Positions 28,929-32,482 of a stretch of DNA of 40,644 nt are shown here, in pieces. A program made the position numbers and the translations under genes. Under the pieces are notes generated by a model. That model was not told the DNA's origin and searched no databases. It saw only the letters and a program-made list of their open reading frames with translations. The DNA is taken from UHGV virus genome UHGV-0202126. One strand, written 5' to 3'. The stretch is from a virus. Each line of letters starts with the position of its first letter. The stretch's first letter is position 1.

Positions 28929-30158
28929 TTAAGGAAGTTGATTTTTGGTTTTTAAAGATTGCCCCGCTTTTGCCCCGCTATCAAGTTTTTTAAGCATTTG
29001 ATCAAATTGAGCGATCGTTTCTTTACGCTTATCCCCAGTTATATGAGCATATATGTCTAAAGTAGTTTTTATATTTGAATGACCTAGAAGTAATTGAAGG
29101 GACTTTGGGTCTGTTCCTGCTTGAATCTGCAAAGCAGTATACGTGTGTCTCAGTCCGTGTAATGTAATTCTTGGTAGATTAGTTTTATTTATTATAATAT
29201 CAAATTTAGAACCTACATCTCTTGGGATAAGTGGAGAACCATCTTTTTTACAAAATAGATATTTTGATTCTCGGAAGACTAAAGGAAAAAGAGCAGCATA
29301 TTCTTTCCTTAGCTCTATCCAACTTTCTAGTTGTTTGTATGCTACCTCTGGTATAGGAACAATCCTATTAGAACTTTTATTTTTTGGTGGGAAAACTTTA
29401 TAACTGCTTTTCAGTTGATTCGAAGCAGGTGATCCTAGTGTTTTTGAGATATTGATTTCCTTTGTAATCGGATAATAATCATTAATATACAAGGCACAAG
29501 CTTCACCTATTCTAAGCCCACCGTACATTAGCAAATAGAATAAAGCTAGGTCTCTTTGTTTCTCTAAAGTAATATAATAGCTGGTCTCTTTCCTTTTTTT
29601 ATTTATTTCAAAAGAACAGTAATCTCTAAACTTTTGAATATCAACTGGTTCCCAGAATTTTTTATTTTCTTCTGAATCTTCATAATAAGGTATTTTTATG
29701 TCTGAAATTGGATTGACTTTGAAATATCCGTCTTTGACAGCCTGTTTTGCAATCATTTGAGCTATTTGATTTATCGCCAACAGAGAATTTCTTTTGTATC
29801 TTTTAGATAACTCATTTAATTTTTTTTGATAAAGATTATGAGAAAGTTTGTTTAATCTCATTTGTTTAAATGTATTTTTTAATGTATTGAGGAAGGTTTC
29901 TCGAGACCGTAAAGACGTTTCTTTAACAGAACCTTTATAGGTATCAAACCAATTATCTGCGTAATCCTTAAAGAGTATATTGGGATTCTTAGCCACGGTT
30001 CCGTCTTTAACATCAATATAAGCTTCCGCAGCTGCATACTCCGCTTCTGGTTTCGTGTCAAATCCACCTTTGCTATGCTCAGTTTTTTTACCTGTAATGG
30101 GATCAACGTAACGAATACGATACTCCCATTTTTTACCGCGTTTTCTGAATGTAGCCAT
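28929..30158 (-). CDS. int: tyrosine site-specific integrase with AP2-like arm-binding N-terminal domain
   Basis: 409 aa. N-terminal MATFRKRGKKWEYRIRY is the Arm-DNA-bind pattern. C-terminal LHGLRHTY...TLDIYAHI are the box II / catalytic Tyr motifs. Transcribed towards the tRNA-like element. Confidence 0.85.
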   Translation of the reverse strand: MATFRKRGKKWEYRIRYVDPITGKKTEHSKGGFDTKPEAEYAAAEAYIDVKDGTVAKNPNILFKDYADNWFDTYKGSVKETSLRSRETFLNTLKNTFKQMRLNKLSHNLYQKKLNELSKRYKRNSLLAINQIAQMIAKQAVKDGYFKVNPISDIKIPYYEDSEENKKFWEPVDIQKFRDYCSFEINKKRKETSYYITLEKQRDLALFYLLMYGGLRIGEACALYINDYYPITKEINISKTLGSPASNQLKSSYKVFPPKNKSSNRIVPIPEVAYKQLESWIELRKEYAALFPLVFRESKYLFCKKDGSPLIPRDVGSKFDIIINKTNLPRITLHGLRHTYTALQIQAGTDPKSLQLLLGHSNIKTTLDIYAHITGDKRKETIAQFDQMLKKLDSGAKAGQSLKTKNQLP

Positions 30159-30212: not shown

Positions 30213-30623
30213 TCAATACACTTGCTGATAAATGATAGGCATCCATTTCTTTACGACTGGCTCTAATGAATAATCGATATTATAGCAATCCATGAAATAA
30301 ATCCAGTTTAATTGTGATCTATCAGTCACTTGTGCATTGTTTAAATAATGCGATAGAGAAGTTTTTACTGCTTCTATATCTGCCTCGTTTTCCGCTTTAC
30401 AATGTGAAATATAAGAGTCTCTGTACTCGTTGTAGAAATTTTTATGCTTAGAAGCATGGGATAATTCATGTGACAAAACTTGGATTTCTTCGTATTCAGA
30501 CAATCCAGGATGGATGTATATTACATTGTGTTCTGGCAGATAGCACCCATCCTCATCAATATCATCTAAATAGAGTACATCCACACCTATTTTTTTGGCA
30601 AAGTTCCTCAAAAAAATTAACAT
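30213..30623 (-). CDS. ImmA/IrrE-family metallopeptidase
   Basis: 136 aa. HELSH (HEXXH) motif. Lies directly downstream of the XRE repressor, as in ImmR/ImmA pairs. Confidence 0.65.
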   Translation of the reverse strand: MLIFLRNFAKKIGVDVLYLDDIDEDGCYLPEHNVIYIHPGLSEYEEIQVLSHELSHASKHKNFYNEYRDSYISHCKAENEADIEAVKTSLSHYLNNAQVTDRSQLNWIYFMDCYNIDYSLEPVVKKWMPIIYQQVY

Positions 30624-30631
30624 ACAGACAC

Positions 30632-30988
30632 CTACTTAGATTTTTTTCTTTCTTCTTCTTCACGTGCCCTTTGTTCAACAAGAGCTCGTGTTGCTGCAAG
30701 AATGATTTCACGATCTTTATCTGAAACAGGTTTTCCGCCATAGGTCATGATGACAGTATCATCTTTGATATCGATTTCCTTTGGATTTGTTGAAGGGTTA
30801 TCAGTTCGACCAAGAAGATAATCAGCAGAAACTTGGAAATAATCAGCTACCTTTTGCAGAGTTTCTATTTTCGGACTCTGCTTTTTCCATTTGTAAATGG
30901 AGTTCTTTCCAAATCCTATCCGATCTTCCAACTCAGAAATTGATATCCCTCTTTTATTAGAGAGCTCTTTTACCCGTTCAAAAAGCAT
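30632..30988 (-). CDS. XRE-family (cI-like) repressor
   Basis: 118 aa. N-terminal HTH (ISISELEDRIGFGKNSIYKWKKQ). Divergent from the cro-like gene across the operator region. Confidence 0.75.
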   Translation of the reverse strand: MLFERVKELSNKRGISISELEDRIGFGKNSIYKWKKQSPKIETLQKVADYFQVSADYLLGRTDNPSTNPKEIDIKDDTVIMTYGGKPVSDKDREIILAATRALVEQRAREEEERKKSK

Positions 30989-31031
30989 GATATAACAACC
31001 TTTCTAGAGCACACGAAAAAAATACCAGAAA

Positions 31032-31074
31032 GTTGGATAGAAAATATTGACAATTCTATCCAATTGTCTTATAG
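31032..31074 (+). promoter_or_regulatory. rightward early promoter with operator inverted repeat
   Basis: TTGACA (31046-31051), 17-nt spacer, TATAGT (31069-31074). Half-sites TTGGATAGAA (31032-31041) and TTCTATCCAA (31053-31062) form an inverted repeat centred on the -35. Confidence 0.55.
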
Positions 31075-31206
31075 TTATCTCGTAAGCTAATTTAATAAGC
31101 AAACAAGCAATAAGAAAGACACCTAATAAAAATAAACAATTCGACGTCGCCAAACTAAGAATGTTGTTTTAATAGGGATAATTCTAGGCTTATTTAACTT
31201 TATATA

Positions 31207-31235
31207 AATATAAGACAGTTGGATAGAAAAGTCAA
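31207..31235 (-). promoter_or_regulatory. leftward promoter (towards the cI-like gene) carrying a third operator copy
   Basis: Minus strand reads TTGACT, 17-nt spacer TTTCTATCCAACTGTCT, TATATT. The spacer is nearly identical to that of the rightward promoter. Confidence 0.5.
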
Positions 31236-31292
31236 TATAAATTAGCGAATTTTATTAGCTTACAAAAAATTAATGAGGGAGAGTGATTTTCG

Positions 31293-31469
31293 ATGTCGCA
31301 AGATTTAATTACACAAATCAAGATTGCATTGGTCAAGAAAGAAAAGAATCAAGCTTGGTTAGCTAAGCAGCTAAATATTTCAACTGCTTATATGTCTGAC
31401 ATTATGAATGGAAAACGAAGTCCGAAAGAGAAAATCAAAGAAATTAAGGCTGCTTTGGACTTGGAATAG
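31293..31469 (+). CDS. Cro-like small HTH protein (58 aa)
   Basis: RBS GAGGGAGAG upstream of the ATG. AWLAKQLNISTAYMSDIMNGKR is an XRE-type HTH. Below the ORF-track cut-off. Confidence 0.6.
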   Translation: MSQDLITQIKIALVKKEKNQAWLAKQLNISTAYMSDIMNGKRSPKEKIKEIKAALDLE

Positions 31470-31481
31470 GAGGGGGTTAAT

Positions 31482-31781
31482 ATGTTAGATCAGCCAAACC
31501 TATTTGATCCAGTAGAGTATGCGAAAGAGTGTATCCGTGACGAAGTGAAAAAGTTAATGCCGAAAGAAATTCTATTCGCAACTATCGATATTAACAAGTT
31601 AGTACAAATCACGAGTCATAGTGTGACTTATTTAGAAAAACATTTCATCAATACTCCAGATGTACAAGCATTAGAATGCTCACCGACAACCAAGCGTCTT
31701 TGGAAGTATCCAGATATTCGGGACTGTTGGTTAGAGTTTTGCGAACAGAACAATATAAAAATAAAGGAGGAACCAAAATGA
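31482..31781 (+). CDS. hypothetical protein (99 aa)
   Basis: RBS GGAGGGGG upstream. Its stop overlaps the start of the next gene (ATGA). Confidence 0.5.
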   Translation: MLDQPNLFDPVEYAKECIRDEVKKLMPKEILFATIDINKLVQITSHSVTYLEKHFINTPDVQALECSPTTKRLWKYPDIRDCWLEFCEQNNIKIKEEPK

Positions 31782-32482
31782 CAGATTTAGTAATTATGAA
31801 AGATCGCCAAGCGGTCACGAGTAGTTTGAATGTAGCAGAGGGGTTTGAAAAGGAACATCGTAATGTTTTACGAGACATTGATTCGTTAAAAAGAGATGTG
31901 CTCAATTTTGAGCAGATGTTTTTCGAAGTGAACGAACCGGATTCTTATGGTCGATAACGTCGAGTTATCTATATGAACCGAGACGGTTTCACAATTCTAG
32001 CTATGGGATTCACAGGAAAAAAGGCACTCCAATTCAAACTGAAGTACATCGAAGCGTTTAATCAAATGGAAGAACACATTAAGCAACAAGTAAAAATTCC
32101 AACCACACCACGAGGATTGGCAAAACTTGCTTTAGCAGCTAACGAAGAAACGAATCAGCGTGTTGATGAACTAGACACTCGCGTCGCTGATTTAGAAGAG
32201 AACACGGTGCTCAGCGCTGGCGATTACGGATATATCAGTCGTCGAATCAATCAGCGAGTTTCGGAAGTTGCCAGAGGATTTGGGAAACTTACTCAAGAAC
32301 AACGAGGAAAACTTCATAAAGATATCAATTCAGGTGTAAAAGCTGTGACAGGTGTATCTACGCGGACGCAACTAAGAAACAGACACTATGAAACAGTCTT
32401 AGATTTCATTAATGATTGGGAACCATCTACAGCAACAAAGATGCAAGTGCGACAAATGAGCTTGGATTTAGAAACTGCATAG
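31778..32482 (+). pseudogene. Rha-family phage regulatory protein/antirepressor interrupted by a single in-frame TAA (31955-31957)
   Basis: N-terminal part MTDLVIMKDRQAVTSSLNVAEGFEKEHRNVLRDI and the following ORF ...RRVIYMNRDGFTILAMGFTGKKALQFKLKYIEAFNQME together form one contiguous Rha domain in one frame. They are split only by the TAA. Confidence 0.6.

Follow-up and report, generated by a model that had tools for sequence, protein, structure and literature searches.

Predicted facing promoters with spacer operators and a conserved overlap cassette in the probable lysogeny switch of an Enterococcus temperate siphovirus

The architecture of the switch between lysis and lysogeny has been well worked out for lambda, P22, 186 and P2, and for a few lactococcal and staphylococcal phages. 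In coliphages 186 (pR and pL) and P2 (Pe and Pc), the lytic promoter is opposed by a lysogenic promoter pointing towards it, their transcripts overlap by about 62 nt in 186 and about 35 nt in P2, and the repressor acts at the lytic promoter. Convergent promoters one to two hundred nucleotides apart are also found in prgQ/prgX of plasmid pCF10 and in iad/traA of pAD1, where the repressor-side transcript runs antisense to the other operon's leader; in pCF10 regulation proceeds through transcriptional interference together with antisense RNA. The immR and xis promoters of ICEBs1 are described as divergent. Enterococcal prophages shape hospital-adapted E. faecium and E. faecalis, and no description of the cis-regulatory layout of their switches was found in the searchable literature. 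Here we analyze the 304-bp gap (positions 30989–31292) that separates the leftward, repressor operon from the rightward, early operon in the virus genome UHGV-0202126, whose whole stretch of 40,644 nt is called the window below. Comparison with homologous regions makes it probable, well short of certain, that the gap holds the switch of an Enterococcus temperate siphovirus, built from two near-identical facing sigma-A promoters with operators in their spacers, a conserved cassette in the overlap of their transcripts, and a long-range duplex between two elements named E1 and E3.

The predicted lytic promoter PR (31047–31075, plus strand) consists of TTGACA (31047–31052), the 17-nt spacer ATTCTATCCAATTGTCT and TATAGT (31070–31075), and scores 11/12. 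The predicted promoter of the repressor operon, PL (31207–31235, minus strand), consists of TTGACT (31235–31230), the spacer TTTCTATCCAACTGTCT and TATATT (31212–31207), and scores 10/12. A sequence-only reading of the window had proposed this facing pair; its hexamers and 17-nt spacing are confirmed, while the rightward coordinates it gave, 31046–31074, are one base low. PR and PL are the top two promoter-like matches in 30500–31800. With predicted starts at G31082 for PR and A31200 for PL, arithmetic gives a leader of 211 nt to the cro ATG at 31293 and one of 212 nt to the cI ATG at 30988, in agreement with the roughly 210 nt proposed earlier for each, and the two predicted transcripts share 119 nt (31082–31200). 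The number of promoter-like matches in the region, five against a shuffle expectation of 4.9, has no significance by itself, and equality with chance is what would be seen if the hexamers were accidental matches in AT-rich DNA or mere parts of the operators. That explanation is hardly credible, since the hexamers, their 17-nt spacing and their position are kept in 85–86 of 88 related regions while the DNA between them stands at background identity.

These 88 distinct homologous switch regions were collected with short conserved strings and one protein-based search, covering viral contigs, one genome per species, metagenomes and deposited phages. Their sources are Enterococcus (E. faecium-type, and E. 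faecalis phiFL1/2/3), E. ratti, E. gallinarum, E. raffinosus, E. hulanensis, Marinilactibacillus, Floricoccus and the Bacillus clarkii phage BCJA1c. Excluded from all counts were a locus in an Anaerolineales metagenome-assembled genome (L072) and most of the "m2-only" loci L047–L070, which are chance matches to the 16–19-nt search strings and carry no switch architecture. At fixed register a score of at least 9/12 is reached by PR in 85/88 regions and by PL in 86/88. The PR register is 6 nt before E1 in 85 of the 88, the GTCAA of the PL -35 is invariant in alignment A2, and the facing pair again gives the top two promoter matches in phiFL1A, BCJA1c and vB_ElaS_B1578. Among 19 representatives of different repressor classes, mean pairwise identity is 0.34/0.41 in the flanks, 0.38/0.40 in the spacers and 0.43 in the discriminators, and rises to 0.69–0.88 in the hexamers. 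Such an alternation, with conserved hexamers and unconserved spacers and flanks, is expected under selection on sigma-A promoters. The convergent layout with overlapping transcripts, as first proposed, thus recurs throughout the family, with a predicted start-to-start distance of 118–122 nt in nearly all members. The arrangement that the sequence-only reading had named as its alternative, a back-to-back pair nearer each ATG as in lambda, did not emerge: among the relatives neither a conserved divergent pair nor any other conserved promoter-like site was found closer to either start codon.

The near-identical spacers were earlier said to hold an operator, and the family bears this out. Exact copies of TTCTATCCAA occur three times in the 40.6-kb window, at 31033–31042 (minus), 31054–31063 (plus) and 31219–31228 (minus), all at the switch. 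With one mismatch allowed there are 13 matches against 5.3 ± 2.2 expected, a number reached in 0/100 shuffles. The three copies form the cores of a common repeat unit of about 21 nt, TTCTATCCAAYTGTCTTATAT, which at about 21–25 nt is longer than first stated. The region also shows a 25-nt direct repeat (31020–31044 and 31206–31230, 88%) and a 50-nt inverted repeat (31029–31078 and 31204–31253, 78%). The first copy named above belongs to the putative operator O3 (31022–31042, minus strand), the second to O1 in the PR spacer (31054–31074, plus strand), and the third to O2 in the PL spacer (31208–31228, minus strand). O3 is inverted relative to O1, flanks the PR -35 and matches the O1/O2 unit at 18/21 positions. 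This third, inverted copy had likewise been proposed before, and most members have a copy upstream of the PR -35, which is an exact 9-mer in 43/88 regions.

The spacers are highly variable between phages and matched within them. Among the 88 regions there are 41 distinct 17-nt spacers at PR and 42 at PL; the two spacers of one phage have an exact 9-mer in common in 59/88 cases and agree in at least 8/9 positions in 85/88. The motif changes with the recognition-helix region of the neighbouring XRE/ImmR-like repressor. In the window, the region GFGKNSIYKWKKQSPKIE co-occurs with TCTATCCAA spacers. Across the family, GFGKNSIYKWK..SPKIE is paired with TCTATCCAA, NFSKNSLYAWKKSKPSID with TCTACAAAAC, GIGKNSLYSWKKN.PKGT with TTAAAACTAG, (D/N)IGRNTIYQWNKRTPS with TTTACAATAT, and GISNGQIRKWD with TTATTTGATA. 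At least 12 repressor classes can be distinguished by such pairing of helix and spacer, and one class was found with both of the cassette subfamilies described below. This covariation of protein and DNA across a natural family is strong, albeit indirect, evidence that the spacer motifs are operators of the repressor, CI.

The DNA between the promoters follows another rule. It shares about 81% identity with phages that carry an unrelated repressor and unrelated operators, and it is the sole part of an 8-kb stretch with a megablast-level match to any deposited phage. The overlap cassette spans the 119 nt between the predicted starts (31082–31200, both strands), and conservation begins at both predicted +1 positions. 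At one end lies E1, GTAAGCTAATTTAATAAGCAAA (31082–31103, plus strand), the first 22 nt of the predicted PR transcript. At the other lies E2, GCTTATTTAACT(T) (31188–31200, minus strand), which forms the first bases of the predicted PL transcript and is able to pair with the inner half of E1rc. Beyond PL, just upstream of the cro ribosome-binding site, is E3, TTAGCGAATTTTATTAGCTTAC (31242–31263, plus strand). Mean pairwise identity among the 19 representatives is 0.81 for E1, 0.70 for E2 and 0.72 for E3, and the value for E2 contrasts with the 0.43 of the adjoining discriminator. It is thereby partly shown that the overlap is a conserved, immunity-independent cassette common to at least 12 immunity types. 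The sequence-only reading had overlooked it, and it is probably the mechanistically important part of the switch.

A cassette of this kind might also lack any regulatory role and be a patch of homology at a module boundary, kept for the recombinational exchange of lysogeny and early modules. Its singular megablast-level match points that way, as does the finding of one cassette joined to many repressors and to different first early genes. Nevertheless, we regard this as improbable. The conservation is patterned, starting at the predicted +1 positions, skipping discriminators and spacers and keeping the hexamers. Moreover, two cassette subfamilies differ in their central part, yet keep the length, the rod shape described next and the complementarity of E1 and E3, with compensatory changes.

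On either strand the overlap is predicted to fold as an imperfect rod-like hairpin, more stable than shuffles, with a mean fold z of -1.5 (plus) and -2.0 (minus) over 24 diverse members. When the rod of one member was tested on the more divergent subfamily, 71% of the cells were paired, against 67% in shuffles and 28–50% in slid controls. Rod cells changed on both sides number 26 against 12.3 ± 2.8, in related sequences and with the structure taken from one member. In the apical hairpin, CGUU-NNNN-AACG, UA is replaced by CG in four sequences, and in the closing stem, read on the minus strand, C-G has changed to U.G. G.U pairs in the rod number 39 on the minus and 22 on the plus strand, in a structure itself derived on the minus strand. 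The rod is moderately supported. A search of 30900–31400 on both strands against Rfam 15 gave no family match (best E=1.9, far below the gathering score). A variant of the cassette exists in L008 (IMGVR_UViG_3300011701_000038), where a deletion of about 21 bp at approximately +108 to +130 removes E2 and the PL start region and leaves TAATAC as the PL -10; it offers a natural variant for testing the function of E2.

E1 and E3 are complementary to each other and form an inverted repeat. E1 begins 6 nt past the PR -10, so that the initiating purine would be its first base, and as E3 lies upstream of the PL -35, only the rightward RNA holds both arms. E1:E3 is the sole consensus stem that RNAalifold keeps in the full 39-sequence alignment. 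For 33 distinct E1/E3 pairs, the cognate duplex has a mean energy of -20.6 kcal/mol against -17.7 kcal/mol for non-cognate combinations; the cognate is better in 30/33, and 0/2000 permutations are as good. In one locus, found via its Cro gene rather than an E1 pattern (L284), TACGCTAA is paired with TTAGCGTA; here the local palindromy is lost and the complementarity is kept. In L076, E3 has turned into a direct repeat without a hairpin and is still complementary to E1, and L214 has two G.U pairs that are functional only on the plus strand. By a hand count from the sequences, the G.U pairs of E1:E3 fall mainly on the plus strand. Taken together, the comparison argues that the leader of the early genes forms a long-range duplex of about 20 bp, its 5′ end fully paired, which closes a domain that contains PL. 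In Firmicutes, such features usually serve as 5′-terminal stem stabilisers against RNase J1 or as phage RNase III processing sites.

Alternatively, E1 and E3 could be palindromic DNA operators (AGCTAA-N-TTAGCT) for the Cro-like protein or the repressor, placed at PR +1 to +22 and PL -42 to -63 so as to lower both promoters. In many members each of them is a near-palindrome, and both sites carry a protein_bind label in the BCJA1c record of GenBank (AY616446). This phage is a true member of the family, with the same promoters, E1, E2, E3 and Cro family; its record annotates E1 and E3 only, as "repressor" sites, and leaves the facing promoters and the spacer operators unannotated. Binding by an immunity-specific repressor is excluded, as E1 and E3 are the same across at least 12 repressor classes, and on this comparison of sequences the BCJA1c record marks the wrong sites as operators. 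The spacing of the half-sites also speaks against DNA operators, since it ranges between 12 and 14 bp and can differ inside a single phage. E1 opens with the predicted +1 of PR, and L076 and L284 lose the local palindromy and keep or even improve the E1:E3 complementarity.

A DNA-level reader is also favoured by the Cro-like protein itself. Of 84 loci with 2.5 kb or more of downstream flank, 83 hold a homologue of the window's Cro, which is either the first gene or sits 0.5–2.3 kb farther downstream, after inserted genes. The recognition helix of this protein, S..Y(M/L)SDI..G(R/K)(R/K), is near-invariant across all repressor classes and genera. Such a helix cannot read the hypervariable CI operators, unlike lambda Cro, and its target should be conserved DNA; E1, E2 and E3 are therefore candidate, albeit unproven, Cro targets, in place of the RNA duplex or alongside it. 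In the BCJA1c group (L229, which is BCJA1c, L217 and L218), the PL spacers contain ATTAGCTTAT, and an E-like motif, AATTAGCTTAT or AATTAGCGAAT, stands beside the CI operator, which hints that the reader of the E motifs may act directly on PL in this group. A DNA operator at E1 and E3 is thus a possibility to be taken seriously, though we hold it to be doubtful, and the long-range duplex is preferred. Two further candidates were rejected. As independent local hairpins, E1 and E3 give inconsistent energies, weak in the window at -1.5 and -1.2 kcal/mol, with no strand asymmetry, so that mutual complementarity is the better description. An invertible segment flanked by E1 and E3 can be dismissed, as the opposite orientation did not occur among the oriented loci examined and no invertase gene is present.

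The comparison supports a convergent pair in which either promoter holds a CI operator and PR has one more beside it, together with long leaders, an overlap that is conserved and a co-varying E1:E3. This architecture is well supported and widespread: PR drives cro and the early genes via its predicted 211-nt leader, PL drives cI, immA and probably int via its predicted 212-nt leader, and the ImmR-like CI reads the site of about 21 bp that fills both promoter spacers and recurs as O3. A mechanism can be proposed from this layout, and its RNA-level part is plausible. Cooperative binding of CI to O1 and O3, which bracket the PR -35, would shut PR, and weaker binding to the lone O2 at higher concentration would produce negative autoregulation of PL. 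CI at O1/O3 would also stand in the way of PL-derived polymerases heading to cI. When CI is lacking, both promoters would fire into the 119-nt overlap; the stronger PR would suppress PL by collision and occlusion, and the complementary sense and antisense RNAs could pair, as in coliphage 186 and pCF10. The E1:E3 duplex may either protect the 5′ end of the early mRNA or constitute an RNase III site, and the PL RNA, since it carries the complement of E1, might compete with E3 for E1. On induction, ImmA or a Rha-type anti-repressor would remove CI.

A bolder version can be put forward only tentatively. The 180-bp block from the PR +1 to E3 might be a portable RNA-level decision module of Firmicute phages with at least 12 immunity types, in which mutual antagonism of the RNAs sets the choice between lysis and lysogeny and the interchangeable repressor merely biases it. 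The repressor transcript would begin inside the E1:E3 loop, antisense to the rod and carrying an E3-like arm. It could then open E1:E3, or RNase III could destroy both RNAs together.

Several points weigh against the proposed switch. The affinities assigned to O1/O3 relative to O2, the transcriptional interference between the promoters and the role given to the duplex are inferred. RNAalifold on the full alignment retains only a 9-bp outer stem; MAFFT misaligns the two cassette subfamilies, which accounts for the survival of the outer stem alone and calls for analysis at the subfamily level. The inner half of the window's own E1:E3 pairs poorly (-16.0 kcal/mol), and the invariance of the outer halves of E1 and E3 is partly by construction, since these belonged to the search patterns. 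The rod that was tested came from a single member, and within each subfamily much of the cassette varies too little to reveal covariation. The shuffle and permutation tests overstate significance, since the sequences share a phylogeny. No mapped starts were found for the cassette family, and among the entries listed in the V583 table none matches a PL-type upstream sequence. Finally, hexamer scans are blind to weak, activator-dependent promoters.

The last point leaves room for a different source of the cI mRNA. PL might make only a short counter-transcript to the PR leader, and cI would be expressed from a weak, possibly CI-activated proximal promoter lying back to back with PR, as lambda PRM. 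The window offers an extended -10 candidate, TGgTATTTT (31027–31019, minus strand), which precedes the predicted cI start region by 24 nt and stands at a sensible distance from the cI ribosome-binding site. Relatives of the same immunity type do not keep it, and it overlaps O3, so that CI would repress rather than activate it. A short PL RNA might end at the minus-strand apical hairpin, behind which the window and phiFL-type members have a U-rich tract; this hairpin has only 2–3 G-C pairs and fails the terminator scan, and in L217 A's take the place of the U's. More broadly, the stretch between PL and cI yielded no terminator-like site in the window, phiFL1A, BCJA1c or vB_ElaS_B1578, and a discrete short antisense RNA of the pCF10 type, ended by a terminator, is thus not indicated in these four. 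The start sites listed for E. faecalis V583 bear on both sides: the prophages pp3 and pp5 have short cI leaders of 25 and 14 nt, whereas for pp1 a single leftward start is listed upstream of cI, the distal one (PMC7724050). Transcription of cI from a proximal promoter is accordingly judged unlikely, and PL is retained as the promoter of the repressor operon.

The neighbouring genes place the switch in a recognizable setting. The leftward operon begins with the CI-like repressor (30632–30988, minus strand), a 118-aa ImmR-like protein with an XRE helix-turn-helix (HTH; Pfam HTH_3, 1.2e-8), which among solved structures is closest to the N-terminal domain of ICEBs1 ImmR (7t8i, 1.1e-5). It is followed on the same strand by an ImmA/IrrE-type metallopeptidase, a putative anti-repressor protease (30213–30623; Pfam Peptidase_M78 1e-6, DUF6782 1.3e-8; phrog_87 metallo-protease 1e-16), and by a 409-aa open reading frame (ORF) for a tyrosine integrase (28929–30158), which is probably the final gene of the operon; relatives annotate an integrase at the equivalent position. 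The adjacent XRE repressor and M78/IrrE-family metallopeptidase, annotated likewise in relatives, the Pfam and PHROGs assignments, and ImmR as the nearest solved relative identify the region, by homology, as the lysogeny module of an ImmR/ImmA-type temperate phage. Rightward, the first early gene encodes the 58-aa Cro-like HTH protein (31293–31469, plus strand; phrog_1468, 5e-17). The nearest deposited relatives are the Enterococcus phages EH-TP1 and vB_ElaS_B1578.

Other observations concern the same neighbourhood. The second early gene (31482–31781, plus strand, 99 aa) is without a Pfam or PHROG match. A Rha/ORF6C-type anti-repressor is apparently split by a stop codon into two ORFs (31676–31957 and 31973–32482, plus strand). 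The upstream ORF terminates in ...NEPDSYGR* at 31957, and the downstream ORF of 169 aa has an ORF6C match together with a Phage_pRha match that starts only at profile position 58; the gene could be a pseudogene or hold a recoding site, or the stop could come from a sequencing error. Within the cI coding region, on the opposite strand, a terminator-like hairpin of 9 pairs followed by TTTTT (30856–30881, plus strand) could halt rightward read-through from the integrase side ahead of PR. A 49-aa leader ORF with a TTG start (31004–31153, minus strand) was rejected as coding, its frame being broken by indels among close relatives. Among the deposited sequences, PQ554527.1, labelled as the A. baumannii phage "Acinetobacter phage D2SVT", carries the enterococcal cassette with the same identity and span as vB_ElaS_B1578 (PQ283533.1) and is of near-equal length; the record is probably mislabelled or contaminated.

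The family amounts to a natural experiment in which the operators follow the recognition helix of the repressor and the promoters and overlap stay fixed. Immunity groups become predictable from sequence, and the annotation of prophages, BCJA1c for example, can be improved. The switch also supplies a compact, testable model that combines convergent transcription with a long-range leader duplex in a Gram-positive lysis/lysogeny decision, and it indicates sites at which temperate enterococcal phages might be turned obligately lytic for therapy. In a literature search whose scope lay outside the phiFL, phiEf11 and BCJA1c papers, the facing layout, the spacer operators and the cassette were not found described.

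Mapped transcription starts are at hand for prophages of V583, from differential RNA sequencing (PMC7724050, Table S1). In pp1, a plus-strand start at 292433 lies 42 nt upstream of cro (EF0307), and a minus-strand start at 292693, just beyond the cro stop, is the one upstream of cI (EF0306). The corresponding twin promoters, TTGCGT-17-TATACT and TTGCGT-17-TATAAT, face each other and have AATTAC in each spacer (PMC7724050). The table lists the leftward start merely as "antisense", and the main-text passages searched hold no discussion of a lysogeny switch (PMC7724050). The listed starts give pp3 and pp5 the usual short-leader layout, in pp5 with a divergent pair (PMC7724050). As far as the table goes, the mapped pp1 pair indicates that facing twin promoters are used in enterococcal prophages. 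Judged from the same entries, pp1 belongs to a different switch family: its overlap of 260 nt covers cro itself, as with lambda PRE, its cro leader is 42 nt, and the sequences upstream of its two promoters are without an E1- or E3-like motif. On the listed starts, pp1, pp3 and pp5 were all rejected as members of the cassette family, their switches being of other types.

The switch analyzed here shares with 186 and P2 facing promoters and overlapping transcripts, in this case predicted, and a repressor that would act at the lytic promoter, with transcriptional interference as the expected coupling. It differs from them in having an XRE/ImmR-type repressor and an ImmA protease rather than 186 CI or P2 C, an operator in the lysogenic promoter as well, and an overlap that at 119 nt exceeds theirs and is a conserved structured cassette. 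In place of a Cox/Apl-type regulator with a second role as excisionase, its first early gene encodes an XRE-type HTH protein. With the E. faecalis plasmid pCF10 it has in common the host genus, the convergent promoters and a repressor-side transcript, here a predicted one, antisense to the other leader. However, pCF10 controls plasmid conjugation via a peptide-responsive RRNPP regulator and has no sequence relationship with this switch. The ICEBs1 ImmR/ImmA and phi105-type modules share the same-strand order of XRE repressor, M78/IrrE-like metallopeptidase and integrase, whereas the predicted promoters here, unlike those described for ICEBs1, are convergent and have long leaders. Because the repressor and Cro types differ, the switch is not a member of the 186/P2 or the pCF10 family. 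By analogy, it resembles 186 and P2 in function and pCF10 prgQ/prgX at the RNA level, and in its proteins it is an ImmR/ImmA module.

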